DNA from: Candidatus Levyibacteriota bacterium
GTDB lineage: Bacteria; Patescibacteriota; Microgenomatia; Levybacterales; UBA12049
DNA: 64,000 nt
Reading direction: 5' to 3'
NCBI GenBank assembly: GCA_052034235.1
Contig: JBPOIT010000005.1
Coordinates: forward strand, 49,698 to 113,697
Part shown: piece by piece, positions 1 through 20,936 of the stretch
Layout: each line of letters opens with the position of its first letter
Numbering within the stretch: position 1 is the first letter of the stretch
Position numbers and translations under genes: made by a program
Notes under the pieces: model-generated
What the model was told of the DNA's origin: nothing
Seen by the model: only the letters and a program-made list of their open reading frames with translations
Databases searched by the model: none

Positions 1-988
1 CTCTAACTACTCCTATTTTACGTGCTGAAGAGACAGTGCTTCTAGGATCTTCAAATAACTTTCCTACTTGTCCACGGTTCATTGCTTTATCTGGATCGAT
101 CGGTAAGCCTGTGAGTATTACTCCTACAGATTTTCTCACGATATGCTTCCTTCCTCCGTCATCTGTTAGAGTTACTCTGAGTGTTGACCCTTCATCGTCA
201 GTTGGTTCTGTCATTACAAAAATTTTTGCTGGTTTTTCTGGGACTATACCTTGGCCTTTTTTATTCAGCTCAGTGAGAGCATCCCCAACTCGTTCCTCCA
301 CTTCTTTCCCAGTCGGTACATGTTCTCCTTTTTGCTGAACATATCTTCCTTGAACGCCCCCTGCGTCAGTGGTTACAACTTCGTCCCTAGATGGTCTCGC
401 TAATCGTTCACGTACCTCCCTCGGCGAACGCCCTGTTGTATCAGATAGTCTATCAACCACTGCTCCTCGTACTCCTTCTTTGGTTCTTTCAGGTAGATTT
501 TCTTTTTTACCTTGATCTCTACTATCTCCCCCCAGAACTCGTCTCCTCTTCGGTATATCACGTGGAGTTGGACGATTTCTTGGTGGTGTTATATCAGCAT
601 CCAGCTTAGCGGGTGATCCGGTTGGATCAGCTGGTACTTCTGGCGGTTCTCCACTTGCTCTGCTTCTTGAAACTCTTGGTGGTAAGGTAGGTTCCACTCC
701 TTTATCGCTTGGTGTAGGTTTATCAGGTGGTACTTTTGGTCCTTCTCCATCTCCACCATTTCGTGGACCTTCTGCTGTAGCTGTAGGATAAATTCTCCCT
801 TTTAAAGAACCGCCCGGTGGAATTGGTTGTCTACGTGTTTCAATCGTCGCTGGAATTTGAGGAGTTGCACCTAAATCAACACCAACTCTCCGAATGCCAG
901 AATCTATAGTCGGACGGGTACCTCCCACTCCCGAATTCCCAGTTTGTCCATCTAAGCCTCTTTTTCCTCCTTGCCCTTCAACTGCCAT
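1..988 (-). CDS. Tagged island protein, partial (C-terminus lies beyond the window start). Its first ~118 aa are near-identical to those of the 4934..7741 gene: MAVEGQGGKRGLDGQTGNSGVGGTRPTID...
   Basis: Manual reverse translation from ATG at 988-986 gives MAVEGQGGKRGLDGQTGNSGVGGTRPTID, identical to the N-terminus of ORF 4934..7741. The frame stays open to the window edge. The + strand ORFs 36..338 and 391..609 are antisense shadows of it. Confidence 0.6.
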   Translation of the reverse strand, partial: MAVEGQGGKRGLDGQTGNSGVGGTRPTIDSGIRRVGVDLGATPQIPATIETRRQPIPPGGSLKGRIYPTATAEGPRNGGDGEGPKVPPDKPTPSDKGVEPTLPPRVSRSRASGEPPEVPADPTGSPAKLDADITPPRNRPTPRDIPKRRRVLGGDSRDQGKKENLPERTKEGVRGAVVDRLSDTTGRSPREVRERLARPSRDEVVTTDAGGVQGRYVQQKGEHVPTGKEVEERVGDALTELNKKGQGIVPEKPAKIFVMTEPTDDEGSTLRVTLTDDGGRKHIVRKSVGVILTGLPIDPDKAMNRGQVGKLFEDPRSTVSSARKIGVVR

Positions 989-998
989 AATGCCACGT

Positions 999-1004
999 AT
1001 TATA
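999..1004 (-). promoter_or_regulatory. Extended -10 box (TGTTATAAT) 10 nt upstream of the ATG of the partial tagged gene; implies a leaderless transcript
   Basis: The minus-strand sequence upstream of ATG 988 reads GTGTTATAATACGTGGCATT-ATG. No Shine-Dalgarno motif is present. Confidence 0.4.
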
Positions 1005-1180
1005 ACACGACGTAGGTTATTTCTCACTACGCGTGAGCATATAACATAGAGTCGGGTGAGCTAAAGGCGATAAGCGTCACGGCTTGCACCAGTTTGCCTG
1101 ACCTTCAAAAAGTTTTTGATACGCGTACTCATTTAAACAAACAATTATATTACAATCTTTGGATACTTATATTTTTTGAA

Positions 1181-3640
1181 TTATTCGCTAGCTGAATTTT
1201 GGGGAGACATGTTTCTAAAAGCTTTTCGCGCAGCTAACTTTTTGATATTTTTGATAGAGCTTCCACCTACGGTGTATTCCCTTGGTTCTTCACCCGGTAT
1301 GGTAATACGAACAGTGCATGTAAATTTTCTTTCAGGTCCTGAAACCTCTGTTATTTCATAGTGTGGTTCCTCCCATCCTTGACGACTCGCTAACGTTTGC
1401 AAAGCTTCGAGATAATTTCCTTGATTAACATGTACAGGTCTATCTCTTCGTGGAACATTTGAATAAATGATATTTTCGTATTCCCTATTTGGCATATGAC
1501 TTCGTGCCTGCTTGAGAACATCTTTTGCAGCAGCAGTTTCAACTTGATTTCGACTGGATCCTGTAAATTCATGTGATTGAAGTGTCACATCTCCAAAAGT
1601 GACGCTTGCGGTAACTTTGAATAATGGGTTATCTGGTGGCCCTTCTTGTGTAACCTCATAATTCGGAGGATTCCATGACTTAGTTTTGCACATTTCCTTG
1701 AGTTTTTTCCTTAAATCTGTTGTGGTATATTTATCTTGTGAAACATCTTCAACAGGGCTTTGAGAAATTTTCGAAAGGACATTCCATAACGCTAATTGTT
1801 CAGATTTAGTTTGAGAATGAGCTGTGATTTGGTCAGAGGTCATCGGTGTATCACCTATCTGCATAGTTGCAGAAGTGGTAGATTGCGGTTCATACGCTAA
1901 TCCATGTTCCTGTGTTGTAAATTCTGGAGCAGACCATACTCCACGTTGCTCTCCTAACTGAACAATTTGAGGTGCTAATTGGGGATTTTCATAGATATGC
2001 GCAAGGACATCTGATTTTAATCTTGCAACGGATCCATCTTCCAATACCGTTCCTCGTAAAATCAAATACTGATCATATACTGATAATCTACCATCAATTA
2101 GTCTCCTTTGCACTTCTACTCCTACATTTTCCGGAATAACTCCATCACGAGAGGTATCCCTAACAACTCTCGTAAATAAACTTGGATCTACCGATCCTAA
2201 GTCTTTTTGCTTTTGCACTCTAGCTACTTCTCTTTTGGATTCAGCGACATAAAATTTTTTCGTATGTATTTTTTCATTTGTAGTTTGAGAATTTAATCTT
2301 CGTGCCATTTTATCGAGTTGGTCAGGTGTATAGGGAGACTCTTCACCTCGCATATGAGCTATAACTATTCTTTGATTCACCAAACTCGCATGAAGTCTGA
2401 GACCAATACCTCCAGGTGCGTAAGCATCAACACCCATGGCCATATGTCCTTCTGGTTCTACGCCGAATGAAGCTCTACCATAAAGGACTTGTAACCTATC
2501 ATTTACTTCGTCTAGTGGCTCTCCAGATTTATTCATTGCTGCATTTTGATATATTATTCTTATATCTTCTGAATCCGGATCACGTACTAATCCATGCTGA
2601 TTCCTGTAGAGTGCTGGTAAACCATGACGTGCCAAATACTTACCAAAAGCAGTATTTAATTTTATTTTTGCCTCTTGAACGATTTTATATCCTGTCATAT
2701 CTTGACCAACCTGAATGATATTTCCATCCTCATCAGTGGCTAATCCGCTTTGAGAATCATACATTACTAACGATCCTTTTCTTGATCGGTCTCTTTCAAG
2801 TGCATCCGCTACAGAGCTGAGTAATGTAGCTTCTCCAAAACGGGGATGACTCGGATCTTTGAGTATTTCACTAAATTCTTTAGGGCTCATTCGTCCTGCA
2901 CTCGTAAATGCCGTTTGGGTAATCGAGGTTTTATCACGATCATTAAATGGAACATGCAACGTCAGTGTTGGTCTTGTTTGTCCAGGTAATAAACTCAAAC
3001 GGGATGCTGACAATGGACGAGGCAGCATAGGTGTAACAGTATCACTACCTCGATACCCCGTGAAGCCTCTTGCTTCAGCTTCTACGTCAATAGCTGTATT
3101 CGGTCGAACAACAGCGGAGACCTCTGATACTGATACTTGTAACGTATGTGTATTTGCTGGTTCTGTTACCACACCAAGTCCATCATCTAAATCTTTTGCT
3201 GTACTCGGGTCAATAGTTATGCCGTGCACTTCTTCACGACCGGTAAGTATCGCTTTGAGCTTGGGTAATGCGGCAACTTCACGCATAACTTCTGGAGGAA
3301 ATTCAAAACGCTCCACAATACCCGTTGCTCTTACTCGCCGTGGAGATGAAGCAGGTGCGGGTTCCTGTGCTTGTGTTTCAAAAATGACTCCTCGATCTGC
3401 TGGTTTTGTAGTCGGAGGAGGTGTATCTGAGGTTTCCCGGGGCTTTTCAGGTTCTGCAGGAGTTAAGGATGCCTGAGGAGCACTGATCCCCGGAGTGCTA
3501 TCTCTTCCACGTAGAATGGCACGTGTGGGTTCATGAGTAGAGGAAATTGGCCCAAGATGTCGGAGACCATCAGCTCCCAATCGACTTGGTGGGACCGGAT
3601 AACTTGGTCTATCTTGACCTCCTGAAAATTCAACACCCAT
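1181..3640 (-). CDS. RNase II/R-family 3'-5' exoribonuclease (RNB domain) fused to two C-terminal dsRNA-binding domains. It has an N-terminal MGVEF tag and a Pro-rich linker
   Basis: RNB motif I: HGITIDPSTAKDLDDGLGV aligns to E. coli RNase II VTIDSASTEDMDDAL. TVTPMLPRPLSASRLSL aligns to FNIPMLPRELSDDLCSL. The C-terminus carries two dsRBD-like units (…GPPDNPLFKVTASV…AAAKDVL and …GPERKFTCTVRI…GGSSIKNIKKLAARKAF). No cold-shock or S1 domains are present. The N-terminal ~150 aa are low-complexity. Confidence 0.75.
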   Translation of the reverse strand: MGVEFSGGQDRPSYPVPPSRLGADGLRHLGPISSTHEPTRAILRGRDSTPGISAPQASLTPAEPEKPRETSDTPPPTTKPADRGVIFETQAQEPAPASSPRRVRATGIVERFEFPPEVMREVAALPKLKAILTGREEVHGITIDPSTAKDLDDGLGVVTEPANTHTLQVSVSEVSAVVRPNTAIDVEAEARGFTGYRGSDTVTPMLPRPLSASRLSLLPGQTRPTLTLHVPFNDRDKTSITQTAFTSAGRMSPKEFSEILKDPSHPRFGEATLLSSVADALERDRSRKGSLVMYDSQSGLATDEDGNIIQVGQDMTGYKIVQEAKIKLNTAFGKYLARHGLPALYRNQHGLVRDPDSEDIRIIYQNAAMNKSGEPLDEVNDRLQVLYGRASFGVEPEGHMAMGVDAYAPGGIGLRLHASLVNQRIVIAHMRGEESPYTPDQLDKMARRLNSQTTNEKIHTKKFYVAESKREVARVQKQKDLGSVDPSLFTRVVRDTSRDGVIPENVGVEVQRRLIDGRLSVYDQYLILRGTVLEDGSVARLKSDVLAHIYENPQLAPQIVQLGEQRGVWSAPEFTTQEHGLAYEPQSTTSATMQIGDTPMTSDQITAHSQTKSEQLALWNVLSKISQSPVEDVSQDKYTTTDLRKKLKEMCKTKSWNPPNYEVTQEGPPDNPLFKVTASVTFGDVTLQSHEFTGSSRNQVETAAAKDVLKQARSHMPNREYENIIYSNVPRRDRPVHVNQGNYLEALQTLASRQGWEEPHYEITEVSGPERKFTCTVRITIPGEEPREYTVGGSSIKNIKKLAARKAFRNMSPQNSASE

Positions 3641-3650
3641 ATAAGCCTAT

Positions 3651-3659
3651 ATTATACCA
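3651..3659 (-). promoter_or_regulatory. Extended -10 (TGGTATAAT) 10 nt upstream of the ATG of the RNB gene. It overlaps the stop codon of the upstream gene
   Basis: The minus strand reads TGGTATAAT-ATAGGCTTAT-ATG. The same TATAAT-ATAGGCTyTw-ATG arrangement precedes the 3652..4746 gene. Confidence 0.45.
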
Positions 3660-4746
3660 TCTTTCCTCCCGTTACCGCGAGGATTTTACTTACCTGTTCA
3701 TCAACTGCTTTTGCACTTACAGATACAATTAATTCTCTATATGCACTCTTACTTACCGATGATTCAAAAAATGGATCAAAAAATTTCTCTCTCGTTGGCC
3801 TAATCCTATCTCTAGCCTCACTTCTAATTATTCCTGTCACTTCTGCCCATCTACTTTCGCCACTTTCTTGGGCTGTTATAGTTAACGCAGATAAAAAATT
3901 TGTTAAATTATGAGTACTTACCGTTTTTGGATAAGAAGGTAATAAGTACTCATGACTATGCAAATTATGTAATCCTGAATAGGACAAATTTGGCCATGTA
4001 AATAATTCTACTAAATGATCAACACTTGGTGGGATTCTGTGATGCATATAAGGATTTATATAATCACATACTGATAATCGAACATTTGGAATTTCATCAA
4101 CAATTTTCCGTACTTTTTTATCAATTGCTGCATATTGATCTCTGGTCGGAGTCGGACCTCTCCCTGAATAAAATACAAGATCAAGATCAGCAGGTTTATT
4201 TTTCGAACTTGGTTGTACATATGTTCCCAATGCATCCCTAACAAGCATGCCACCTGATGCACCACTCCCTACAAGAACAAGCCCTGCACCTGTAAAACCG
4301 AACGTATTATACTGTGATTCCATTTCTCCTTCAACAACCTGCATAACTTTAGCAACATCTGGATGGGTGAGCTCATTCATGAGTTGTGTATGGTTAGCAA
4401 CTGCTTCAGCTATTGTAGTTACAGGTTCTCTGACGAGTGAAATAGCATTTTGACGTCGCTCTTCTAATTGATCAAGGGGCATGCGTCTTTGCGGGTTATC
4501 CCATGGTGTTTGAACACGATCCTGTACAAATCGAGCAACCCGTACACTTAACAATCGAGCAGCACCCGAAGTTCTAGATACTTCTGCTCTTTCACCATTA
4601 TCTTCAATTATTCCTCCATTTAAGGCTGTTGTTGGGGATAAAACATTAGGTATAGGTCCAATTCGTGACAATTCTTTCCACCCGCCTGAGTCTCTATTTG
4701 TTGTTACTCTTCTTTCAGAATTTCCTCTGACATTTTCTATCCCCAT
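3652..4746 (-). CDS. Tagged Pol-beta-superfamily nucleotidyltransferase whose head domain resembles poly(A) polymerase / CCA-adding enzymes
   Basis: Motif GGMLVRDALG…(16 aa)…DLDLV matches the PolyA_pol/CCA head signature GGxVRDxLLG…DxD. N-terminal MGIENVRGNSER tag. Confidence 0.45.
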   Translation of the reverse strand: MGIENVRGNSERRVTTNRDSGGWKELSRIGPIPNVLSPTTALNGGIIEDNGERAEVSRTSGAARLLSVRVARFVQDRVQTPWDNPQRRMPLDQLEERRQNAISLVREPVTTIAEAVANHTQLMNELTHPDVAKVMQVVEGEMESQYNTFGFTGAGLVLVGSGASGGMLVRDALGTYVQPSSKNKPADLDLVFYSGRGPTPTRDQYAAIDKKVRKIVDEIPNVRLSVCDYINPYMHHRIPPSVDHLVELFTWPNLSYSGLHNLHSHEYLLPSYPKTVSTHNLTNFLSALTITAQESGESRWAEVTGIIRSEARDRIRPTREKFFDPFFESSVSKSAYRELIVSVSAKAVDEQVSKILAVTGGKMV

Positions 4747-4756
4747 AAGAGCCTAT

Positions 4757-4765
4757 ATTATAACA
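4757..4765 (-). promoter_or_regulatory. Extended -10 (TGTTATAAT) 10 nt upstream of the ATG of the nucleotidyltransferase gene
   Basis: The minus strand reads TGTGTTATAAT-ATAGGCTCTT-ATG. Confidence 0.45.
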
Positions 4766-4933: not shown

Positions 4934-7741
4934 CTATTCTTGAGTATTCCTTGCGCTTTGTTCACTCAGACGGATAAGTTGTATCATATATGCATCTTTT
5001 CTTGGTCCTTCTAGATTTCGGACAATATTCTCAAACGCCCTTAACGTTACCTCAGTATCCATTCCATAGCTTATTTGTTTTTCAACGAGAGATCGAAGTA
5101 ATATTACTCGTTGACTATCAGTTAATTTAGTTTCTGGTGAAATGAGTCTATTTTGTACTGTTGTAAATAGTGTTTCATTTGCAGGTAAAACCCGTATCAC
5201 ATCTATATCCCAATCAGTAACTTTAATATCCTCCAATGTGTGTAAAGCACCCTCAGTGTCACCAGTTTTTACCTGACCTTCAAAAAGCTTATGATACACA
5301 TACTCACTTAATACTGATTCTCCAATCTCTTCTTTAACTGTTTGGAATAATTGGTTACCCCCTATATCAATTTGTGCAACTGCTAGATCGAGTAAATACT
5401 CTTGTCTTTTTTCAGGCGAAAGAGTTCTATCAGCTCTTACTGAGACAGCACTCGCATCGATTTCCGCATTTAGTCTTTCTTTTTCAGCAGCAGGAGGTGG
5501 ATCTTCAGTATAGATATCCGCTAAATTTTGCATTGCCATAGTACGAAATTCACTACGCGTTTCACCGATAATCTCATATAATTCATTTTTATCAGCATCA
5601 GTTAAAATACCATATGATTTTAATCCATTTCTTGCTGCAATCGATCTTTCCTGTGGGTCTTTTATCGTTCTAATTTTATCCATAGCATTAGTTACATCTC
5701 TCTCGGCTTTAGTTGTATCTCCCGTTTGCATAGCTTTTTCTCCTGCTTCCATATATCCGTCAACTATAACACGAGAAAATTCATCTAAAGTAAAACTTCT
5801 TACAGCATCTGTGCTTTTCCCAATTCTAGCCAAATATGCATTTTGTATCCTGGCAACACCTAGTTTATCCCCATTAGCTGCATAAGTCCTCCCTAACTGA
5901 AATAATTGTATGAGTGCCATATCACTTTCAGAAATATCAAGTATGTGTGCTTCTGCTTGTGGATAGTGACTAGCTGAAGGTTCATCCATGTAGCGATCTG
6001 CTAATGCTTTAAGTAATGCATCTCGACTAATATTGTCTTCAGGATTTGTTTTCTTTTCCAAAGAACCAACAAGTTCCTCGGCATCCACCAATGTTAGTGA
6101 TTCTTCTCCAGGAGAGAAAATCGGAGTGTCAACACGCTCCCTATGTAACATTGCTGTATATATAGAAGCCTGTATTTCTACCAAACTGCTCCGAAGAATG
6201 CCATCAAGGTCACTATCTCCTGTATTAAATTCTACATAATCCATTTGATCAGCTATTGCTCTCGCTGTATCGATATACCCGGTTTGTGCGTATAAAATAG
6301 CTATATTCCCGCGCAACTCGTTTCTTGTTAGTTCAGGTATACTAAATTCATCTTCTACAAATTCTCCTACTTCAATTAGTTGTCTTGCTTTGTCCATCTC
6401 TGCTTTTTCACTCTCTGGAGAAATATTTGCAGCTAGTTTTGCCATCTTTATTTGAGTGTTAATAACACCTATTCCATGTGATTCACCAATGCCTTGTGAT
6501 AAAAAAGTGCTTGTCTCTCTGAATCCTTCAACCAAATCTTCCGGTGGAGGTAATTCCAATTCTTTGAATAAACTGAGTAGATAACCATATTTAAGCAAAC
6601 GTCTACCAGGTTCATCATCTGCGGCTGATCTTTGGAATTCTCCTATTAATGCTTGAGCTTTTGCTGCAGGATCGTATGGTTGACCTGATTCTGCTGTGAC
6701 TCCCCTTGCTTCAGGCAAAACTTCTTCCTGCCCCTCTTCTAGTGTAATTGCTGGCACAACACTCAGAGCAGGCCTTGCAGGAGGTGTTTCGTCGACCATA
6801 CTCTCATCAGTGTCATCTCCAGGATGGTGTATTACATCTCCGGGTGGAGCTGATACAGTTTGTTGTGCATCACCATCAGTAGTAGTCGGTGATCCGGGTA
6901 GAATTCCTTCAGGGACTTTTCTACCAGCCTTCGCGTAATCAACTTCAATCCACTCACGAACGACATCATTAGGGGGCTCTTTTCCTTCATGATCATTTCT
7001 ATATAACTTTTTTCTCCATTCTGTACGTTTTGAGATTATAAATTCTATTGAAGGCAGTTGAAACCTATCTCCTAAAGCTGGCTGTTCAATCACATCTCTT
7101 CCTTGTAACATAAAATCCTTCGGCTCAACTCTTAGTACCTCAGGATGAACGTTCAAATCCTCTGGAATTTCTTCACCTGCAACTCGAAAATATTCTCTCT
7201 TCCATCTTCTCACTTCATCTGGTGGAGGCTCGGTACCGTCATGCTCACTTCTATATTGCTCAGCTCGCCATCCTGATATTATTTCGATCATAACTGATAC
7301 TGGTGGTGTCGTTAGAGGTGCTGATGTTTTTTTTCTCTCTGCTGGAGGCTGAGGTACATCAGGTTTACCTGAGACTGGCTCTTCGGTAACTTCTGGCGGT
7401 TCTCCACCTGCTCTGCTTTCTGAAACTCTTGGTGGTAAGGTAGGTTCCACTCCTGTATCGCTTGGTGTAGGTTTATCAGGTGATACTTTTGGTCCTTCTC
7501 CATCTCCACCATTTCGTGGACCTTCTGCTGTAGCTGTAGGATAAATTCTCCCTTTTAAAGAACCGCCCGGTGGTATTGGTTGTCTACGTGTTTCAATCGT
7601 CGCTGGAATTTGAGGAGTTGCACCTAAATCAACACCAGCTCTCCGAATGCCAGAATCTATAGTCGGACGGGTACCTCCCACTCCCGAATTCCCAGTTTGT
7701 CCATCTAAGCCTCTTTTTCCTCCTTGCCCTTCAACTGCCAT
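4934..7741 (-). CDS. Tagged helical-repeat (TPR-like) protein. It has a duplicated W-rich ~45-aa motif and is a paralog of 7846..10158
   Basis: N-terminal MAVEGQGGKR tag plus a GVDLGATPQIPATIETRRQP motif. An internal duplication (ISGWRAEQYRSEHDGTEPPPDEVRRW / ISKRTEWRKKLYRNDHEGKEPPNDVVREW) is present. The long C-terminal alpha-helical region shares a motif with the next gene (LTDSQRVILLRSLVEKQISYG vs LTDSDRIILFQQIAEKQIQFG). Confidence 0.55.
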   Translation of the reverse strand: MAVEGQGGKRGLDGQTGNSGVGGTRPTIDSGIRRAGVDLGATPQIPATIETRRQPIPPGGSLKGRIYPTATAEGPRNGGDGEGPKVSPDKPTPSDTGVEPTLPPRVSESRAGGEPPEVTEEPVSGKPDVPQPPAERKKTSAPLTTPPVSVMIEIISGWRAEQYRSEHDGTEPPPDEVRRWKREYFRVAGEEIPEDLNVHPEVLRVEPKDFMLQGRDVIEQPALGDRFQLPSIEFIISKRTEWRKKLYRNDHEGKEPPNDVVREWIEVDYAKAGRKVPEGILPGSPTTTDGDAQQTVSAPPGDVIHHPGDDTDESMVDETPPARPALSVVPAITLEEGQEEVLPEARGVTAESGQPYDPAAKAQALIGEFQRSAADDEPGRRLLKYGYLLSLFKELELPPPEDLVEGFRETSTFLSQGIGESHGIGVINTQIKMAKLAANISPESEKAEMDKARQLIEVGEFVEDEFSIPELTRNELRGNIAILYAQTGYIDTARAIADQMDYVEFNTGDSDLDGILRSSLVEIQASIYTAMLHRERVDTPIFSPGEESLTLVDAEELVGSLEKKTNPEDNISRDALLKALADRYMDEPSASHYPQAEAHILDISESDMALIQLFQLGRTYAANGDKLGVARIQNAYLARIGKSTDAVRSFTLDEFSRVIVDGYMEAGEKAMQTGDTTKAERDVTNAMDKIRTIKDPQERSIAARNGLKSYGILTDADKNELYEIIGETRSEFRTMAMQNLADIYTEDPPPAAEKERLNAEIDASAVSVRADRTLSPEKRQEYLLDLAVAQIDIGGNQLFQTVKEEIGESVLSEYVYHKLFEGQVKTGDTEGALHTLEDIKVTDWDIDVIRVLPANETLFTTVQNRLISPETKLTDSQRVILLRSLVEKQISYGMDTEVTLRAFENIVRNLEGPRKDAYMIQLIRLSEQSARNTQE

Positions 7742-7749
7742 AATGCTCT

Positions 7750-11766: not shown

Positions 11767-11772
11767 TATAAT
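11767..11772 (+). promoter_or_regulatory. -10 box TATAAT 7 nt upstream of the ATG of the + strand tagged gene
   Basis: The sequence reads CTTATAAT-TCACCCC-ATG. Confidence 0.4.
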
Positions 11773-11779
11773 TCACCCC

Positions 11780-13460: not shown

Positions 13461-13466
13461 ATTTTC

Positions 13467-13494: not shown

Positions 13495-13513
13495 TAGTTT
13501 CTTAAACGTATTT

Positions 13514-16500
13514 CTATGGATCTACATCTAAGTCACCAGCAAGTTCGAGTAATATGTCTCTCAATCTTTCTCTTCCGGATCGAGTTGAATCTGGAACAGC
13601 TGTAGTTGTACCAGCTCTTCTTTTTTCTTCAATAGAACTTGTAACAATCTCACGTACCTGAGCATTAACCTCTTGGGTTACGTATTTTGTAATAGCTTCC
13701 TCATACATCCCATAAAGCATCGTTAGCGCCATTTTACTACCCGGATCTGTTGGATCTTCAAAATATTTTACTAAATATTCTCTCAGTCCCTCTAGAAATG
13801 GAATAGTATAAGTGTTTGTGGCTAATGTCGCATCGATAATTTCTTTATTGAGTTCAGTATCATAATAATGTTCTGGAGTAATTACACCGGGGGCAAGAAC
13901 CTTGGCTGCTAATCTATTTGCGACACTTTCCATATCGTGCATAATCGGTATTCCAACTGCCCGCTCTACTGGAATGAAAATAGCTCCTCTGGACATGACA
14001 ACTTTAGGATAAAATAAGTCTCTATCATTCACAACTGTTCCAATTCCTGGCAAATCAAATAACTGTCTACTTAAGCGACTTGCTCCTTCTGGAGTTGTAG
14101 AAGCTAATATGACATTAATATCATGTTGTATCCCTAATCCACTTGTTTCGTCAGTAATACTAGCAAGACTTTCTATCTGGTTTCCTACAGGCATATTGGG
14201 ATCACGATATGAAAGTTTATGCACAATTAAATCCCACATTTCGAGAAAAGCTTGTTGTTCTACTGCTGTCAAACCAGGTATTGGATGTCCTAATATTTTT
14301 TCCCATTTATCAGAGTCTGTAAATCGTTCTCTTACCGCTTCTTTTATAACAAGCTCTCTTTGTTCATGAATATGAGTATCAATTTGCATTATCAATGCTT
14401 CTAAGACCTTTCTTTTTGAACTTTCTTTATCAGTTGATTCGTATTCTTGAATTAGTTTATCTCTTTGCTCGTCTGCAGTAGAATTTGGTAATGTAATACC
14501 ATATTCTTGCGTTTGAGCTTCAAGACCATCTAGAGCTCCAATAACTAGACGCTCAAGAGGAGCGCTAGCTATTGCTTCTACTTCCTGACGAACCAGCTCT
14601 TTCGGGGTATCATACATACTTGATTGTGGCATAGATTTGGAATCGAACCAGGGATCAATTGTTTTTTCTAAGACTACAGGAGTCCGACCTGGGATAGAAA
14701 TTTCCTCAGTATATGTTGTAGGTTCAGTTGCATTCGGGATACGTCTTCCCCCAGTAGGATCTGATAGATGATACCATACAGCAGCATAGAGAGAATCTTT
14801 AATGTCTTGAGAGGATTTCTGTAATCTCCATATTTCTTCAGAACGTGCTTCAACAATTTTATCGATACCAACTTCCAAAGCAGTTTGTATTATCCTCCTC
14901 GTTTCTGGATCATTTATCTTATGATTATAGAATTTATAAGGATCTCCAGAATTTCCTCCACCGGGGACTTCCTTAAAACCTAGAAATCGTACACCATTAA
15001 CTTTTGAATCAAAAGCGGCATTAAGTATGCCAATTAATTTCCGCGACCACCAGTCTTCTCCACCCAAATATTTCAGTGCTTCTGAGTATTCTTTTTTTGT
15101 ATATGCTATTCCGGATGGCCCCAGATCATACAGACGCCCTTCAGGAGATACGACTAAATCAACACGAGATGGTAGATTTGCTGGATCATCAACACGAATA
15201 CAAAAAGGATCACCTTTATCTACTCTACCTATCATTGTTCCATTAGGTAAATGCCTTAATACATTTCGCGATTGTTCAGGAATACCTAGGCTATCTCCCA
15301 TTACACTAATGTCTGTTTCATCACCTAAACTAAATGTTCCTCTGAATCTGGCACTTGACAACATACTTCTTGGTGCATGACGTGGTTCTTGTCCTATATA
15401 CCAAACTGTATAACCAAATTTTCCACCTTGTAGTACATGTTCTTCCAGAATACTCGCAACTGGACTTGGACTTGTGCTATTGTTTGTGGAAGTAGCTTGC
15501 TGGCCTTCTTCTGCAATAACCAAATTAGTTAACGGACGTGGTGCAGCACTAAGTGGATCTTTCTCAAGATAAGCTTTTTCTGCAACATAATTTGTCGTTA
15601 CTGCGACAAATAATTGCTGTGCTGCAGCAGAAAGAGCATTTGTGTTTATAACAAGATTATCATCGGTAAGAGTATTTGGATCTACAGTATGATTACTATT
15701 AAATCCATCTGCACCAAATATTTCACCCAAATTTCTTTCCAACCAACCTAGGATTCTTGATTGATACTCGCCACCCTCCCCATCATATTTCAATCCTTCT
15801 TTAACAAATTTCTTACAATAATCATAGATTTCATCATTTGATGGATATAACCCTGTATCTTTATACTTATCTTTAAGACCTTTAAATGTTTTATCCAAAG
15901 AAACACCTTCTGCCAATTTTCCAGGCTTCATGCCAATTATCGCTCCATTTAAAACACTTCTAAACAAAGCTTTATCCCCGTCATCTCCTTCAAAAGTGCT
16001 CGCAAGTAAATCTGGCAAAGCAGCATAATGTTTATCCTCAGAATATCCATCAATGGGTCTGGCAAGGCTTCCAAATCCAACTGAGACATCAGCATCCCCT
16101 GCGACGACATTCCAATATATTACCTCTTTACCAGTATCTCTTATCCTATCTCCAAGAAGTCGCCAATCTTCTGCACCACTCGGAGCAAGAACAATAACTT
16201 GCATCCCTTCTCTAACCGCTCTTTCTGCAAGTTGCTGCGTAAATACTGATTTACCTTCTCTTGGTCGGCCCAACACTGTAACACCTAGCAATTGTTCTGT
16301 TGAAATCGGCAATTCCCCAAGATCTGGGCCACGATTTATGCCTAAAGCTGCATTCACAGCGGTACCAAGTCTGATCATTCGTGTTCCATCAGAAAATGTA
16401 GGAAGAACAGTGTTTGTTGTAAGTGGTCTATCATAGTCAAATCCTTTAACTTGTGTTGTTGGATATCTCATCAACTCTGCTAATTGTCCACTACTAACTA

Positions 16501-17821
16501 TTGCATCAAGTGGTACATGAGACGGAGGAAGTTGTAATGCTCCTTCTGGAATCGCTGTTACTTTGATGCTTTTTGAATCCATTGCAGATGTAAGCATATC
16601 TTGAAGTGCTGATACACGCTCAGGGCTCTGGGCAGAGACTTCAACTTCCGTTGTCCACAAAGGTTTGTCTACTTCCGCTAATTTTTTAGCTATAGCTGTA
16701 AAATCTTCCTTTACAAGTTTATCCTTTTCAGCGCCTTGTTTTGCCTTATTAGCAAATAGTTGAGCTAGACCACCTGAGTCCTCTCTCTCTTTCTTACTCA
16801 ATGGACGTGCAACAACCGATATGCTAAAGGGCTCTGTCCCGCCGTGAGTCACCAGCCATTCAGCCCAATTTTTTTCAGTTTTGGCGCCTGGCAATACACT
16901 TGTTGCAGCGCTTAACATATCACTTATTCCCTGAAAAGATTGCAAGTGTTCTGGCAAGGCAGGTGCCTCCTTCTTAAGATCAACGCGTAATTTTCCAGTG
17001 AAACGATCTGTTCTATCTGCTTGATCTAACGATATATTTGATCCTTGAGATTTTTCAGGAAATGTATGAATAGGAGAAGTACTTGTATGGCCAAAATTAG
17101 TTTCTAGAAAATAATTTTTTTCTTCATCCAACCCAAACCTGTAAGTAACCGATCCAGGAGACTGATCTGTTCGTGTCTCTTGGAGAGTTCTTGCTCTTTC
17201 ATCCAACTCACTTACGACATGAGCCGGGTCAATTTGTTGACCTATTAAGAAACTAGTAATGCGCTTTACACCAGTATATGGTACGTCTGGATTTTCAATG
17301 GGAGGAGGAGATTCTAGAAGAATACCACCGTGTAATCCTAGCTCGAATCCGCCGTCAACAATTAGCTTTCTCGTTCGCTCTCCTCGCACCAATTCTTCCC
17401 AACGATGTAATATACCTACGTTCGGATCAGTAACAGTCGGCTCTTCTTCTCGAGACTGGTGATCACGATCACTAGTTTCATTTGAAACAGATCCCGTAAC
17501 ATTAACGGGTTCTTCCTGGGGGAGCGTTACAGGCGGATTAGGTTCCCTAGGAGGCTCTACATCTGAAGTTGAAGCATGAACTGTAATAATATGCCCGTCA
17601 GGTAAACGATTAACTGTAGTAGTAGTTCCATCGGTGGCAGTTGAAAATATTCGACTCGTTGGTCCACTTCGTCTAGAAGATTCTGTTTGGTTAGGCGGTC
17701 CTGTTTGGTCAGATGTTCCTGCAATTAATTGGTCAAATGAACTAACCGGTCTTGTAGGTGGACGAGCTGGAAGTCCCGTATTTTCTGGATTCCTTCTCCC
17801 TTTTAAAAATTCCCAACTCAT
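13514..17821 (-). CDS. Tagged giant (1435 aa) multidomain protein with a central P-loop NTPase domain (FtsK/HerA/VirB4-VirD4-like?)
   Basis: N-terminal MSWEFLKGRR tag and a P/T-rich linker. Walker A is VLGRPREGKSVF. A candidate Walker B, LVIAEEGQQ, lies ~250 aa downstream. No other domain was recognised. Confidence 0.5.
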   Translation of the reverse strand: MSWEFLKGRRNPENTGLPARPPTRPVSSFDQLIAGTSDQTGPPNQTESSRRSGPTSRIFSTATDGTTTTVNRLPDGHIITVHASTSDVEPPREPNPPVTLPQEEPVNVTGSVSNETSDRDHQSREEEPTVTDPNVGILHRWEELVRGERTRKLIVDGGFELGLHGGILLESPPPIENPDVPYTGVKRITSFLIGQQIDPAHVVSELDERARTLQETRTDQSPGSVTYRFGLDEEKNYFLETNFGHTSTSPIHTFPEKSQGSNISLDQADRTDRFTGKLRVDLKKEAPALPEHLQSFQGISDMLSAATSVLPGAKTEKNWAEWLVTHGGTEPFSISVVARPLSKKEREDSGGLAQLFANKAKQGAEKDKLVKEDFTAIAKKLAEVDKPLWTTEVEVSAQSPERVSALQDMLTSAMDSKSIKVTAIPEGALQLPPSHVPLDAIVSSGQLAELMRYPTTQVKGFDYDRPLTTNTVLPTFSDGTRMIRLGTAVNAALGINRGPDLGELPISTEQLLGVTVLGRPREGKSVFTQQLAERAVREGMQVIVLAPSGAEDWRLLGDRIRDTGKEVIYWNVVAGDADVSVGFGSLARPIDGYSEDKHYAALPDLLASTFEGDDGDKALFRSVLNGAIIGMKPGKLAEGVSLDKTFKGLKDKYKDTGLYPSNDEIYDYCKKFVKEGLKYDGEGGEYQSRILGWLERNLGEIFGADGFNSNHTVDPNTLTDDNLVINTNALSAAAQQLFVAVTTNYVAEKAYLEKDPLSAAPRPLTNLVIAEEGQQATSTNNSTSPSPVASILEEHVLQGGKFGYTVWYIGQEPRHAPRSMLSSARFRGTFSLGDETDISVMGDSLGIPEQSRNVLRHLPNGTMIGRVDKGDPFCIRVDDPANLPSRVDLVVSPEGRLYDLGPSGIAYTKKEYSEALKYLGGEDWWSRKLIGILNAAFDSKVNGVRFLGFKEVPGGGNSGDPYKFYNHKINDPETRRIIQTALEVGIDKIVEARSEEIWRLQKSSQDIKDSLYAAVWYHLSDPTGGRRIPNATEPTTYTEEISIPGRTPVVLEKTIDPWFDSKSMPQSSMYDTPKELVRQEVEAIASAPLERLVIGALDGLEAQTQEYGITLPNSTADEQRDKLIQEYESTDKESSKRKVLEALIMQIDTHIHEQRELVIKEAVRERFTDSDKWEKILGHPIPGLTAVEQQAFLEMWDLIVHKLSYRDPNMPVGNQIESLASITDETSGLGIQHDINVILASTTPEGASRLSRQLFDLPGIGTVVNDRDLFYPKVVMSRGAIFIPVERAVGIPIMHDMESVANRLAAKVLAPGVITPEHYYDTELNKEIIDATLATNTYTIPFLEGLREYLVKYFEDPTDPGSKMALTMLYGMYEEAITKYVTQEVNAQVREIVTSSIEEKRRAGTTTAVPDSTRSGRERLRDILLELAGDLDVDP

Positions 17822-17943
17822 ATTTTACAGTTTATCATTATGAATCTTATAGTTTAAATGTACGATTCTTCAGATAAAGGAGTATTATACTATAATTTGC
17901 TATATATAGATAGATATAATATAATGAGTCGTTATTTATTAAT

Positions 17944-19836
17944 ATGTCTATAGCAGAAACCGGTGGTTCCGGAAACCGTGTACATAGTGGAGGATTTGAT
18001 AGAGTATCAAGCAGAGTTGTTTCACGCAGAGAATGTCGTGTTGATTCAGGTCCTGCGACATCCACAGCTAGAATTTCTGAAAGAGCTCCTGTTGTTTCAG
18101 GTCCTACGACACCCGCAGCTAGAATTACTGAAAGCACTCCTGTTGTTTCAGGTCCTACGACACCCACAGCTAGAATTTCTGAAATTAGACACCAAACTTC
18201 TCGAGTTCAAACTCCAGGAGGTGAAGCTGTTTTAGCTCCGGCTAGTGAAGTTAAACCTGCTGCTATTACGGTTAAGGATACCCCCACTATTCCAGACAGT
18301 AAACCCAGAACGAGCGTATATGGTCCCTTTCGTGATGCTTATGACGAGCCCCCAGTTGATACTACAGTAGTTTCTTCCTCTGGTGGTAGCAATGCCAGGG
18401 AAGGAGAGCCTCCTGAAATAGTCGTGGAACAGACACGTGGAGAAAAAGCGAGAAGTGCTTTAGATACCGCTGTTGATGTAGCAACATCTCCCGGTATATT
18501 ATTACCAGCTACATTGGGCGTAGGAGCACTTGCGGTATCCCACCCTGAGCAAGTAGATCGTGTTGTTGGTGCACTAAGTCACCCTGATCCCAAAGTCGTA
18601 GTAGGAACTGTAGCGGCTACTACTGTTGTAGGAATAGGTGCAAGTGCATGGAATAGGTATCTTAAAGGTATACAAAGAAGTGATAAGCCAGCACCTAGCG
18701 ATACATTATATGGCGTAGCAGCAGCAGCACCGCTAGCACATCCACAAGTACTTGATGGACTATCAACTTTAGCTCATGATCCAAAATTTCTTGTAGGTGG
18801 AGCGGTAGTATTTGCTTTAGGAACAGTATTGCCAGTTAATCAAATGATGTCAGAATTTGGTAATTCAGCTATGGAAATAGTAAATAGAGACAAATCTCAA
18901 CCAACACCAAGACATGCAAGGCGTAAACCAGATAGCACAGAATTAATAGGTAGTTTACCAAGAAGTATAAAGGACGCAGTAGTTAACGTACCGGGCCTAG
19001 CAAAGAGAACAGCAGAAAGAGCACAGTTAAATGTAAAAGACGCTTTAGGTGGTGATCTAAGTGCAGTGTTTAATAGATTCCCTATTTCATCAGATGAAGT
19101 AGTAAAGCTAGAAGATAGATATAGAACTTTATACAGCCCATCTCGTTTAGGAATTAGTCAGTATTATACCTTAACCAATTTTGCCAAATTTGGTACTCTA
19201 GCTACAGTTACATCCGCCATCGAATCAGCAGGTATCACAGTTCCACCTGCTGTGGCCGGAGTAATTATTATTGGAAGTAGCAGAAAAGATTTTAAGACAG
19301 CAAAGAAGGAGGTTAAACAAACTCAAGATGATATGAGATTATGGAATTTTAATCGGGCTGCTGCAATAGGTGGAGCAAAAATGGGTGGATTTAAACTTCT
19401 ATTCGGAAGTGCTGGAATAGGAACTTCTTCATTAGCAATTAGTGAATCTTTTGATGTACCAAGAGGAACAACTTCTCTCACATTATGGACTGTAACAGGA
19501 GGTTTATTATGGGATGGCACTCGCTCATTACGTCGTGAACGTGTACGGGCACAAATTACGAATCGCTATGATAATAGAAAGGATAAATTATTAGCCAGAG
19601 GGAATGCAACTTTAAAAAGATATAACGATCTAACTAAACGATTAGATAGTGAAACAGATCCCTCAAAAGCAGCTAAATTACGCGGAGAAAAGGATGAAAC
19701 CTTTAATAGACTACTAGTATTAACAAAAGCCGGTTATGACGGAAAAGCTAAATTTCCTCATTTCGCTGCAGAAACCAAAGAGCATGGGACAATATATGTA
19801 CCTCAAGGCGAATGGCTTCATGGTAAAAGTTCATAA
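17944..19836 (+). CDS. Hypothetical protein with an N-terminal 17-aa tandem repeat and hydrophobic, probably membrane-associated, segments
   Basis: N-terminus MSIAETGGSGNR. Three repeats of SGPxTxxARIxExxPVV are present. Hydrophobic stretches include ILLPATLGVGALAV and VVVGTVAATTVVGIGASAW. Confidence 0.5.
   Translation: MSIAETGGSGNRVHSGGFDRVSSRVVSRRECRVDSGPATSTARISERAPVVSGPTTPAARITESTPVVSGPTTPTARISEIRHQTSRVQTPGGEAVLAPASEVKPAAITVKDTPTIPDSKPRTSVYGPFRDAYDEPPVDTTVVSSSGGSNAREGEPPEIVVEQTRGEKARSALDTAVDVATSPGILLPATLGVGALAVSHPEQVDRVVGALSHPDPKVVVGTVAATTVVGIGASAWNRYLKGIQRSDKPAPSDTLYGVAAAAPLAHPQVLDGLSTLAHDPKFLVGGAVVFALGTVLPVNQMMSEFGNSAMEIVNRDKSQPTPRHARRKPDSTELIGSLPRSIKDAVVNVPGLAKRTAERAQLNVKDALGGDLSAVFNRFPISSDEVVKLEDRYRTLYSPSRLGISQYYTLTNFAKFGTLATVTSAIESAGITVPPAVAGVIIIGSSRKDFKTAKKEVKQTQDDMRLWNFNRAAAIGGAKMGGFKLLFGSAGIGTSSLAISESFDVPRGTTSLTLWTVTGGLLWDGTRSLRRERVRAQITNRYDNRKDKLLARGNATLKRYNDLTKRLDSETDPSKAAKLRGEKDETFNRLLVLTKAGYDGKAKFPHFAAETKEHGTIYVPQGEWLHGKSS
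18046..18200 (+). repeat. In-frame 57-nt tandem repeat, ~2.7 copies
   Basis: tcaggtcctgcgacatccacagctagaatttctgaaagagctcctgttgtt is repeated with a few substitutions. Confidence 0.7.
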
Positions 19837-19874
19837 ATGCAGCCAAATTTACTTACACGTAATATATCTCTCAT

Positions 19875-20936
19875 CTACAATTGAGAATAATCACTAACAC
19901 TCATTACCGTATAAGCAGCACTTGATACCTTACCATTAAGAGTGATATCCATATGACTATCTTTGATACCAGTTACATAATCAGGATATGAAAGACCTGA
20001 AACTCTAGCTGCTACTGCTGCACCATAAGAATTCGATGCTATCTCTTGTACAATTCTAGCTGCTAGTTGCATTGCAGCATCTGGATTATTTGGTGCAATT
20101 GTTAATATTCTCAGTCTTGTGTGATCTGTGGGAACCATATCAACTGTATTATTAAATGCCTCAACAGCCAATCCATATACACTCCCATCAAGGTTCATTT
20201 TTCCTACTTTTCGCTTACCAACACCCAATTCAAAATAACTTTCACGTAGAGCAGGATTATCTGGCTTAATGACAGTAAACGCTTTAGCATCTGGATTCGC
20301 CGATCCTGAGATATCCACACCTACATCTTTAACATCTTTTACAATTTTAAATACGTGTCGTTGTACACGTTCTGCTGGAGTAATAGTAAAAGTCAAAGAA
20401 TCCGCCGCTGGTCCTTCTCCAAGCGGTAAAGAAACTTCAGGTTTATGTTTACTATACGTTTCAACTTTTTTATAAGCCGTATTTACATTTTGTGAATTAT
20501 ACGCAGTTCCTTCGGTTGAGACTCCGTTTTCTACTTGCAGAATCACAGCAACCGGTATTCCATCATTCCCAGGAGTGCTTAGAAGTGTTTGTTCCGGATT
20601 AAAACGTAAAGGTTTTTGTGCAGATGATTCTTGTGATTTTGCTTGAGAACCCGATGTAACAGCATGAGATTCTGGTGGATAAACTTGACCATCTGTCCCA
20701 GCACAACCACTTAATGCAAAAACTGCTGCACCAACAGCTGCCGCACCGGTTGTAACTACTCTTCCTGATCTTCTATGAGTTTCACCAAAATGTAATTTTG
20801 ATGTTATAACTGCCGGTTGTGGTTTAGGTTCATCCGTCACTTGACCTTGAGTACGTATCTGCGACCCAGAGATGCGTGATTCCGATAAAGATGTGGGTCG
20901 ATTTAATATGGATCTCCCAGTTTCTTGAAAAGCCAT
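19875..20936 (-). CDS. Putative lipoprotein or membrane-anchored protein
   Basis: N-terminus MAFQETGRS. A hydrophobic segment VVTTGAAAVGAAVFALSGC ends in a lipobox-like LSGC. Confidence 0.4.
   Translation of the reverse strand: MAFQETGRSILNRPTSLSESRISGSQIRTQGQVTDEPKPQPAVITSKLHFGETHRRSGRVVTTGAAAVGAAVFALSGCAGTDGQVYPPESHAVTSGSQAKSQESSAQKPLRFNPEQTLLSTPGNDGIPVAVILQVENGVSTEGTAYNSQNVNTAYKKVETYSKHKPEVSLPLGEGPAADSLTFTITPAERVQRHVFKIVKDVKDVGVDISGSANPDAKAFTVIKPDNPALRESYFELGVGKRKVGKMNLDGSVYGLAVEAFNNTVDMVPTDHTRLRILTIAPNNPDAAMQLAARIVQEIASNSYGAAVAARVSGLSYPDYVTGIKDSHMDITLNGKVSSAAYTVMSVSDYSQL

Follow-up and report, generated by a model that had tools for sequence, protein, structure and literature searches.

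An N-terminal peptide element shared by unrelated proteins of a strain-variable island in a Candidatus Levyibacteriota bacterium suggests a private protein-addressing tag

Introduction

The locus described here raises the question why a dozen neighbouring genes with unrelated products should start alike. It occupies the left end of a 64,000-nucleotide stretch of a Candidatus Levyibacteriota genome (contig JBPOIT010000005.1, positions 49,698 to 113,697; hereafter the window), where twelve open reading frames (ORFs), g01 to g12, lie within positions 1..20936 and begin with peptides resembling M-[GAST]-[VI]-E-x-x-G-G. An earlier model-made reading of the bare sequence, hereafter the original prediction, had listed these ORFs and quoted their N-termini, and all twelve ORFs and every start match. 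It had further described a bipartite tag on at least 11 of the genes and likened it to the signals of polymorphic toxins and of capsid-targeted phage proteins. Of this bipartite tag, the first element, at residues 2-8, is present on all 12 ORFs, while the second is confined to about half of them. A sister strain carries, in the same slot, an equivalent island with a shared tag of its own, and such a common tag in each island suggests a private system of protein addressing.

Results

A short peptide element begins the island proteins

The conservation of the first element was assessed on the 11 distinct proteins, aligned without gaps from Met1 and scored column by column against within-sequence shuffles. 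The scores of residues 3, 4, 7 and 8 are above the 95th percentile of the per-shuffle maximum, and that of residue 2 is above the 99th percentile of all shuffled columns. Residue 4 is a glutamate in 8 of the 11 proteins as opposed to 1 of 34 flanking genes. The third codon positions differ among the genes, with Val or Ile written as GTT, ATA, ATT, ATC or GTA and Gly as GGA, GGT or GGG, which indicates that the motif is conserved as a peptide and not as a nucleotide motif; the Glu near the start is always encoded by GAA (11/11 for the window, 7/7 for the sister strain). When applied to the 151 six-frame ORFs of at least 60 amino acids (aa), the start pattern retrieves the island genes, two antisense ORFs and a gene at 61248, and no credible hidden small tagged ORFs were found in the intergenic gaps of the island. 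The gene at 61248-62054 (+) starts with MTLETGSS and is a conserved flanking gene present on 9 contigs; it has neither a -10 box beside its ATG nor the second motif, and its likeness to the tag is probably due to chance.

The Pro/Gly-rich disordered linker that had been proposed to follow the tag is borne out by composition, with disorder-promoting residues making up 63-90% of the first 100-200 residues of the island proteins. After residue 8, the ungapped columns score no better than the shuffles, and N-terminal pairwise z-scores above 4 are found only for g06-g12 (z = 7.2), g04-g05 and g04-g09. An N-terminal alignment with a profile hidden Markov model (HMM) had been put forward as a check of the tag, and its outcome is divided: residues 2, 3, 4, 7 and 8 are conserved over the 11 distinct proteins, whereas leave-one-out HMMs fail to recover members, which rules out the tag of the window as one homologous 80-aa domain.

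The second element, predicted as (I/V)DSG…GVDLG…, is accordingly not family-wide, although its position is fixed, at residue 42 or 47, wherever it is present. In g05, g08, g11 and g12, the pattern A[RTV]I[STE][ETS] stands at residue 42 and in g01/g04 at residue 47, and it is found elsewhere 0 times in the other 5.3 thousand aa of island protein and once in 12.4 thousand aa of flanking protein; since the pattern was derived post hoc, the coincidence of positions is the independent part of this evidence. The GVD triplet is limited to g01/g04, g05 and g09. Within g11, a 51-nt tandem repeat at 18039..18184 (+), found by repeat search (2.9 copies, 90% matches, TRF score 243), triplicates the second motif into three 17-aa SGP..ARI(S/T)E repeats.

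The tag together with its linker has also moved between genes. Between g01 and g04, a stretch of approximately 355 nt, which begins 5 nt ahead of the ATG and reaches to about codon 117-124, shows 96-98% identity, and the sequences on both sides of the shared stretch are unrelated. The first copy, comprising the 5-nt leader, the ATG, the tag and the Pro/Gly-rich linker, is located at 623..993 (-) and its counterpart at 7376-7746; the two proteins are 92% identical over residues 1-124. As judged from this alignment, the shared stretch is a recent exchange of tag and linker. Upstream of g01, a 44-nt stretch (1093-1136) is 86% identical to part of the C-terminal coding region of g04 (5268-5311) and looks like a leftover scrap of a g04/g05-like gene, which points to rearrangement and decay inside the island.

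A sister strain carries a different version of the island

The closest relative of the island ATPase g10, a protein designated P0014 (25-30% identity), is encoded on an ENA contig (loci L003 and L014), and the flank there matches positions 22929-30063 of the window with 95-96% DNA identity. The similarity starts exactly at the 3′ end of the tRNA-Lys(CTT) gene at 22929..23001 (-), called by both ARAGORN and Rfam, and the blastn breakpoint places position 22929 of the window at position 16154 of L003, so that the tRNA 3′ end forms the exact right border of the variable island. To the left of 22929, no nucleotide similarity exists between the strains except for one 337-nt stretch at 70%. The block had been thought to end at 20936, but the variable region extends to 22928.

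The sister island spans approximately 19.7 kb between an aldo/keto reductase gene and the tRNA, and holds ten genes that share a 65-aa N-terminal module, together with one untagged sigma-70-type gene. The module reads M-x-x-x-E ... PVD ... P-[IV]-E-P-x-A-x-x-R-P-G ... S-R-F-x-P-x-x-x-L-G. An HMM of the module scores eight members at E = 1e-12 to 1e-26, having been trained on the same eight sequences, with the other three tagged genes outside the searched ORF set; the mean pairwise z of 6 is independent of the HMM training. Identity at codon positions 1, 2 and 3 amounts to 0.48, 0.48 and 0.39, respectively, over a baseline of about 0.34, and 305 of the 622 identical-residue pairs are encoded by different codons. 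On these codon statistics, the sister module is under selection at the peptide level. Among near-identical population variants, the motif columns vary by 2.2%, the non-motif tag columns by 6.0% and the rest of the proteins by 3.1% (p = 0.014 for the contrast between the latter two), which is how short linear motifs embedded in a disordered stretch would be expected to vary.

The tags of the two islands differ in kind. Those of the window are net basic and those of the sister strain net acidic or neutral, and no homology between them is detectable, as hmmsearch and hhalign give nothing and matches made by eye are unsupported; a disordered composition is common to both types, as is a Glu at residues 3-6 with a Gly after it. 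Three families are orthologous between the islands, namely g01 and a 700-aa protein (49% identity in the cargo), g04/g05 and a 779-aa protein (23-26%), and g10 and P0014 (25-30%), and the tag type on each orthologue is that of the island to which it belongs. The presence of different tags on orthologous cargos indicates that the tag belongs to the island and not to the cargo.

An eleventh tagged gene of the sister strain stands alone, 3 kb away, and is absent from the window. It encodes 209 aa (L003 19315-19944), has its own leaderless promoter and is situated between conserved genes for 498-aa and 502-aa proteins; at the corresponding junction in the window (25934-25952), the two conserved genes overlap, with the insert absent and no target-site duplication visible. 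Tagged genes can thus come and go singly. In P0014 (L003 10001-14305), residues 1408-1430 at the C-terminus (…GNRFTPSLELGGTGNTS) repeat the SRF-P-L-LG motif of the sister tag with an independent E-value of 0.011, and this C-terminal motif is nearly identical to the tag motif of the neighbouring 537-aa membrane protein.

Besides that of the window, one other version of the island was found. The same slot thus holds equivalent but extremely divergent gene sets in strains that are about 95% identical, which is the pattern of replacement flexible genomic islands, and the best explanation of the block, as far as comparative evidence can tell, would be that it represents one version of such an island at the tRNA-Lys 3′ end. 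A horizontal origin had been proposed from base composition. The spot values of 58, 42 and 33% GC on which this was based correspond to measured fractions of 0.50, 0.35 and 0.33, and the island as a whole has 39.8% GC versus 37.2% for the rest, so that the compositional argument falls away; the comparison with the sister strain nevertheless shows that the island varies between strains and makes its exchange between lineages probable.

Between the tagged block and the tRNA, and thus within the variable region, lies an untagged gene at 21529..22683 (-) for an AAA_14/DUF4143 ATPase (Pfam), which matches the PADLOC candidate defence family PDC-S01 at 7.7e-87 and is absent from the sister strain L003. 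A tRNA-like 3′ fragment, consisting of a T-arm GGGTTCAAATCC and an acceptor stub, is present at 22826-22870 (-), also inside the variable region and about 60 nt from the intact tRNA-Lys; it is called by neither ARAGORN nor Rfam and may have been left by a past insertion or by the decay of a tRNA.

The island encodes a giant HerA-type ATPase and tagged membrane proteins

The 1435-aa P-loop NTPase of the original prediction is g10 (13514..17821, -), in which the tag and a linker of about 130 aa precede an ATPase that homologue clusters and a family profile now place in the HerA/FtsK superfamily. Its Walker A motif is GRPREGKS, and g10 alone gives no Pfam match. An exhaustive search of 1.84 billion representatives yielded only 7 clusters of homologues, of which P0015-P0018 match PF01935 (DUF87) and PF05872 (HerA_C). 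The g10 family profile matches the solved HerA structures 4d2i, 9x1l and 8xau at 1e-19 to 1e-17, as opposed to E = 0.006 or worse for TrwB, VirB4 and IcmO. Taken together, the DUF87 and HerA_C domains of the homologues and the profile match to HerA structures identify g10 as a giant member of the superfamily. No match to g10 was found in 50,697 phage records, 72,556 plasmid contigs, 2.9 million viral contigs or the genome contigs, and a word-index search with the HerA family profile returned generic HerA proteins only, among them P0021 in an unrelated context. Neither Pfam nor PADLOC detected a NurA, Sir2 or DUF4297 partner for g10.

Distant relatives of g10 are found at L004 1127-6383, L005 8996-13664 and L013 2075-7513, where a co-directional gene encoding 455-523 aa always comes next. 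The partner proteins constitute a separate family, which matches TraG-D_C (coupling protein) faintly; a counterpart of this partner of about 500 aa in the island of the window is ruled out by hhalign probabilities of at most 1.1%. In L005, a LysM/M23 peptidase is encoded upstream of the distant relative, and in L004, L005 and L013 some neighbouring genes also start with M-[GAS]-[VI]-E, an anecdotal observation.

The ATPase gene adjoins genes for a membrane protein and a lipoprotein-like protein, which qualifies the earlier view that no secretion or packaging machinery is recognisable here. In g11 (17944..19836, +), the tag and the three 17-aa repeats are followed by a polytopic membrane domain from residue 218, and in g12 (19875..20936, -), the tag precedes a hydrophobic segment that ends in a lipobox-like LSGC (residues 60-78) and has a weak LppK-like match in NCBIfam. 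The hydropathy scan revealed no hydrophobic segment or signal in 10 of the 12 island proteins, and none of the 12 has a Sec, Tat or lipoprotein h-region within the first ~35 residues. The tag stands ahead of transmembrane segments in g11, g12 and the sister protein L003_14355, an order that would place it on the cytoplasmic side of the membrane.

The remaining tagged proteins

The enzymatic cargo that can be named with confidence is that of g02 (1181..3640, -), where the tag and linker are followed by an RNase II/R-type RNB exoribonuclease domain (PF00773, E = 1e-34, residues 140-426) and, as had been predicted, by two double-stranded RNA-binding domains (dsRBDs; Pfam dsrm, 1.5e-13). The NCBIfam RNase R/II matches are partial, and g02 scores far below the equivalog cut-offs of these families; neither cold-shock (CSD) nor S1 domains were found by Pfam or NCBIfam, the two dsRBDs being present at the C-terminus instead. 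The partial gene g01 (1..988, -) runs off the left end of the window with 329 codons of its 5′ part visible, and its cargo from residue 140 shows the 49% identity, over 114 aa, to the 700-aa protein encoded at L003:7657-9759.

The proteins g04 (4934..7741, -) and g05 (7846..10158, -) are paralogues with 28% identity over 493 aa, and both appear to be alpha-solenoids. In g04, a tag of type I, with the motif at residue 47, and a linker precede repeats similar to tetratricopeptide or pentatricopeptide repeats (TPR/PPR), while the tag of g05 has GVDLG and, at residue 42, ARITT; g05 and the 779-aa protein of L003, its orthologue, are 23% identical over 415 aa. The TPR-like repeats predicted earlier find some support in a PF14559 (TPR_19) match of g05 at E = 1.4e-5 and in a match of the g04/g05 profile to designed PPR proteins at E = 8e-6, support that is weak overall.

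Two further assignments did not survive. The supposed PAP/CCA-like nucleotidyltransferase, g03 (3652..4746, -), and the supposed S-adenosylmethionine-dependent methyltransferase, g06 (10223..11032, -), are tagged ORFans without a Pfam, NCBIfam or PHROG match, and their single-sequence AlphaFold models (predicted local distance difference test, pLDDT, of 34 for g03 and of 38 for the g06 cargo) are unusable and also uninformative on disorder. A GS...DxD motif in g03 would hint at a nucleotidyltransferase, and the tag of g06 is closest to that of g12. Likewise, g07 (11110..11445, -; 111 aa) and g09 (12969..13460, -; 163 aa), described as histone-like, can be called small and basic on the ORF list and composition, with isoelectric points (pI) of 10.4 and 11.7, respectively. 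Finally, g08 (11780..12865, +) is a tagged ORFan with RATIETRR at residues 41-48. All island proteins are singletons in clustering at 90% identity, and a 90%-level variant of g09 is present in another sample.

Island genes have the layout of leaderless transcription units

In 8 of the 12 island genes, a near-consensus -10 box (TATAAT) is found about 6-10 nt before the ATG, in several cases with an upstream TG, and none of the 12 has a Shine-Dalgarno (SD) sequence. The best promoter matches of the region are located at island gene starts: perfect 12/12 matches for g07 (11482-11455, 9 nt before the ATG) and g09 (13494-13467), an 11/12 match for g03 (4784-4757), and -10 boxes for g08 (11767-11772, 7 nt before the ATG) and g02 (TATAAT at 3651-3656, 10 nt from the ATG). 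The island genes would thus appear to be transcribed separately, as leaderless or near-leaderless units. The units are tightly packed, in that the g03 stop codon (3652-3654) coincides with part of the -10 box of g02, and g01, g02 and g03 share promoter-start DNA.

This layout is not a speciality of the island, a notion ruled out by the flanking genes, 8 of 34 of which have a -10 box 4-12 nt before the ATG (for example at 22692-22697, 46619-46624 and 52719-52724) versus 6% of random positions, and have it without the peptide motif. An SD-like sequence precedes only 4 of the 34, and the genome as a whole tends towards leaderless genes. Purine runs resembling GGAGG are present at nucleotides +19 to +23 in g01, g02, g04 and g08, and related runs in g03, g05 and g12; their function as an SD sequence for a downstream start is ruled out, as no in-frame start follows and the Gly codons vary.

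Searches for transfer, packaging and secretion functions

The view of the tag as a secretion or capsid-packaging signal is not supported by the gene content. No integrase or recombinase was detected in positions 1-23000 of the window or in the complete sister island, and the latter, approximately 19.7 kb in length, also has no relaxase, capsid, portal, terminase or protease gene. The far border of the sister island, which L014 spans, was found to have no direct repeat of the tRNA 3′ end that could represent an attachment (att) site, even when up to 3 mismatches were allowed. In a comparison of the island proteins with PHROGs, the RNB domain was the only match, and g04 has no match in the 50,697 phage records. 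The M-[GAST]-[VI]-E start formally fits a prohead protease site S/A/G-x-E, although cleavage there would take off only 4 residues and no protease gene is present.

That the tag matches no recognised trafficking domain was upheld, since scans with Pfam, NCBIfam and PADLOC found no LXG, WXG100, MIX, PAAR, Rhs or CdiA domain in the island proteins. Toxin/immunity pairs were not seen either, as no small untagged genes lie downstream of the tagged ones and the gaps contain no credible ORFs. No type VI (T6SS), type VII (T7SS) or contact-dependent inhibition (CDI) secretion system is encoded in the window or the sister-strain loci. In Patescibacteria, the secretion system of type IV (T4SS) is essential, its substrates are unknown, and its components are VirB4, VirD4, VirB6, VirB8, VirB1 and a VirB2-like protein (PMC12857230); none of these was detected in the island by Pfam or NCBIfam. 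The island likewise has no C39 domain or ABC exporter, GG being present at residues 7-8 only, and the Glu/hydrophobic spacing of the tag, as read from the sequence, differs from the double-glycine leader consensus. The PADLOC scan of nine tagged proteins (all but g07, g09 and g12) gave no match, the untagged DUF4143 ATPase being the only hit of the island, and the reading of the tagged island as a defence system is rejected on this result.

Searches for the tag elsewhere were equally without result. The 70-aa g04 tag gave no candidates in an index of 5.8 billion proteins, which is a weak null, as g04 itself is in the collection yet was not returned; an exact 41-mer of the tag has no match in the genome contigs, and neither the profile of the cargo conserved between g01 and L003 nor the degenerate GAVVDRLSDTTG pattern has one in metagenome or viral contigs. 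A literature search found no description of such tags or islands, nor any citation of the sample accessions. Outside the island, a gene at 52772-55480 (-) encodes a 902-aa Thr/Asn/Gly-rich repeat protein with a signal peptide, the C-terminus of which, from its translation alone, resembles the intramolecular-chaperone (peptidase S74) domain of phage tail fibres.

Discussion

A possible docking function of the tag

A constant N-terminal module with variable enzymatic cargo, as the architecture was first described, stands as far as a shared module on unrelated cargos is concerned; the cargos are not enzymes only, as an ATPase, a polytopic membrane protein and g12 bear it as well. The question is therefore what a tag of this kind could do for such different products. 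It is quite possible, if short of an even chance, that each island has its own disordered docking tag that binds an island-encoded partner and gathers the products into one membrane-associated assembly. The N-terminal module would consist of a few short linear motifs, intrinsically disordered and specific to the island, and would let each product (the RNase II-like enzyme, the alpha-solenoids, the small basic proteins, the HerA-type ATPase, the polytopic membrane protein and the lipoprotein-like protein) bind one common partner at the cytoplasmic side of the membrane. This partner would most probably be encoded in the island itself, as either the TPR/PPR-like solenoids g04/g05 or the HerA ATPase g10, the latter being a candidate for the motor or hub of the island, and the outcome would be a single membrane-associated assembly, which might also export some of the tagged proteins. 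Tag and partner would evolve together, with the tag and linker moving between genes by recombination, and such co-evolution would leave each island with its own version of the tag.

Several features of the two islands are consistent with this model. Given that the flanks are 95-96% identical and the tags unrelated, a conserved partner outside the island would have to recognise two unrelated tags, and since the only untagged gene of the sister island is a sigma factor, any island-encoded partner must itself be tagged. The tag is also present on g10 and g11 and ahead of the g12 lipobox, which cytoplasmic docking or assembly fits at least as well as export does. Solenoids of a peptide-binding type and a HerA/FtsK ATPase are among the putative island products, as docking would require, and the recurrence of the SRF-P-L-LG motif at the C-terminus of P0014 is expected for a portable docking motif. 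The restriction of the start motif to the island, its constraint as a peptide, the slow change of the motif columns among population variants and the swap of tag and linker between g01 and g04 speak for the model as well.

Other considerations weigh against the model. The window tag is robust over residues 2-8 only, the extended similarity being patchy, and as the tags of the two islands are not detectably homologous, the transfer of the clearer sister picture to the window is itself an inference. It would be unusual for a docking tag to be borne by its presumed receptor, and a factor for N-terminal processing, degradation or export could just as well recognise a motif fixed at residues 2-8. 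In addition, the window does not include the left end of the island of its strain.

Alternative explanations

The tag might instead be a signal for export or translocation, possibly into a host bacterium, through the HerA-type ATPase together with g11 or through the Patescibacteria T4SS, a reading that is unlikely but has to be taken seriously. A constant N-terminus with a disordered linker and variable cargo resembles effector families, the soluble tagged proteins have no Sec or Tat signal, and the island is replaced between strains that are 95% identical, as would be the case for arms-race genes; furthermore, the cargos include an exoribonuclease with dsRBDs, and the HerA/FtsK-superfamily ATPase and membrane proteins are encoded in the island. 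Export does not, however, account well for a tag on the ATPase, the membrane protein and the lipoprotein-like protein, in the last of which it precedes a lipobox signal, a redundant arrangement for a protein to be exported. No component of VirB/VirD4, T7SS or any other secretion apparatus was detected by Pfam or NCBIfam, g10 matches HerA and not VirB4 or VirD4, and T4SS signals are normally C-terminal. About as much weight, which is to say not a great deal, can be given to a portable expression cassette, whereby a promoter, a leaderless ATG and the first codons were spread together and the residues reflect initiation, Met removal or stability. Such a cassette would agree with the -10 boxes beside the ATG in 8 of 12 genes without a single SD sequence, with the exchange between g01 and g04 beginning 5 nt before the ATG, with the promoter-start DNA common to g01, g02 and g03, with the invariable GAA codon and with the conservation in the window being strong at residues 2-8 only. 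It is at variance with the eight flanking genes of leaderless layout that have no such peptide, with a sister module conserved at the amino-acid level over 65 residues while synonymous sites are nearly saturated, with the second motif being position-locked at residue 42/47, and with the motif columns evolving most slowly among the population variants.

A regulatory handle appears improbable. Under this explanation, an N-terminal degron or regulator-binding peptide would subject the island products as a whole to one post-translational control, such as their proteolysis until there is a signal, in accordance with the position of the motif at the extreme N-terminus in every case, the disordered and accessible tag region, and the presence of the tag on all product classes including membrane proteins; in g12, it would be discarded with the signal peptide. 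Yet a protease or adaptor from outside would need to recognise both of the unrelated tags in strains of 95% identity, no gene for either was found in the island, and to our knowledge the tag is unlike the ClpX, ClpS and Lon motifs. Still more remote is a cryptic integrated virus or conjugative element with the tags as packaging or propeptide signals. The block does sit at a tRNA 3′ end and varies between strains, HerA/FtsK ATPases often serve as motors of packaging or transfer, a sigma factor of its own is encoded in the sister island, the block has a candidate defence gene and a tRNA-like fragment beside it, and the small-x-Glu start resembles the cleavage sites of some prohead proteases, but the complete sister island is devoid of detectable integrase, relaxase, capsid, portal, terminase and protease genes, PHROGs match the RNB domain only, g10 and g04 have no phage matches and g10 no plasmid or viral-contig matches, and the tRNA 3′ end is not repeated at the far border of the sister island. 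It is hardly credible, finally, that the element is an artefact of mis-called starts or a nucleotide signal, such as GGAGG at +19, taken for a peptide. The GGAGG-like runs at +19 to +23 in several genes could give that impression, but no in-frame start follows them, the ATGs are the first start codons of their ORFs and come 6-11 nt after strong -10 boxes, the Gly codons vary (GGA, GGT, GGG), and the ORFs run on into bona fide domains.

The docking model has a more far-reaching form, which is decidedly doubtful, namely that of a self-contained and strain-specific addressing and delivery system in an ultra-small and possibly epibiotic bacterium, in which the tag would co-evolve with solenoid receptors and a translocon of the HerA-type ATPase and membrane proteins, and RNA-directed enzymes would be delivered out of the cell, perhaps into a host bacterium. 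If true, this would amount to a new secretion signal paired with a new machine and exchanged between strains as one cassette. As either a docking or an export signal, the tag would provide a sequence handle on unannotated, fast-evolving proteins in a type of organism whose interaction machinery is largely uncharted. The two island versions constitute a natural swap experiment, with the same slot, orthologous cargos and unrelated tags, which opens the specificity of tag recognition to direct test. The island further illustrates how a short N-terminal module and a leaderless promoter can be shuffled among genes, and with g10 the HerA ATPase family gains a giant branch that is very rare. Should the element serve expression or stability only, it would still be an uncommonly clear example of constraint on the peptide where leaderless genes begin.

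Comparison with known systems

Among integrated elements, the island is reminiscent of the replacement flexible genomic islands known for O-antigen and cell-wall genes, from marine bacteria and from Haloquadratum, which share with it the slot beside a tRNA, the divergent but equivalent gene sets at about 95% average nucleotide identity and the lack of an integrase; the known ones encode glycosyltransferases and surface structures and have no shared peptide tag. tRNA-linked integrative elements are similar in their position at a tRNA 3′ end and their variation between strains, but differ in that neither an integrase nor, at the far border of the sister island, an att repeat was found here. The capsid-targeted internal proteins of phages, such as those with the T4 CTS or of the phiKZ inner body, come with capsid, portal and prohead protease genes, none of which was detected in the complete sister island.

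Individual components also depart from their families. The g10 family matches DUF87, HerA_C and HerA structures, as would a relative of the HerA/FtsK proteins of the HerA-NurA, Sir2-HerA, DUF4297-HerA and VirB4/VirD4 systems, but is 2-3 times larger (1000-1435 aa), with a disordered tagged N-terminus, long extra domains and no detected NurA, Sir2 or DUF4297 partner. In a similar manner, g02 has the RNB catalytic domain of the RNase II/R family and differs by two dsRBDs in place of the CSD and S1 domains.

As to the tag itself, the PE/PPE proteins of mycobacteria, which are ESX/T7SS substrates, resemble the island proteins in their conserved N-terminal module, their variable and often disordered C-terminal parts, their link to an ATPase of the FtsK/HerA superfamily and their fast evolution. 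Their N-termini are, however, folded helical domains of 110 and 180 aa with YxxxD/E, whereas the island module, of 8-65 aa, is disordered and has no sequence relation to them, and Esx, WXG and EccC components were not detected in the island. Polymorphic toxins of the LXG, MIX, Rhs and CdiA types also combine a constant N-terminal trafficking part with swappable C-terminal modules that are exchanged by recombination, but the island has no detected trafficking domain, toxin/immunity pairs or T6SS, T7SS or CDI system, and its cargos are an ATPase, membrane proteins and solenoids. The oomycete RxLR-dEER and Plasmodium PEXEL signals share the short motifs at a fixed N-terminal distance, the disordered leader, the unrelated effector domains and the fast-evolving gene clusters; these are eukaryotic and follow a Sec signal peptide, whereas 10 of the 12 island proteins have no hydrophobic signal and their export is putative. 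The substrates of type III secretion (T3SS) and flagellar systems have a disordered two-part N-terminal signal, with an extreme end and a docking motif at about residues 30-50, and there TPR-type chaperones bind N-terminal peptides. No T3SS genes are present here, T3SS signals have no consensus as opposed to the conserved residues 2-8 of the island, and the T3SS machinery itself is untagged. Finally, no shell protein is encoded in the island and membrane proteins are not encapsulable, so that the resemblance to encapsulins and microcompartments is one of logic only: in the cargo-loading regions of Family 2 encapsulins and the encapsulation peptides of microcompartments, a disordered N-terminus with short motifs addresses enzymes to one assembly.

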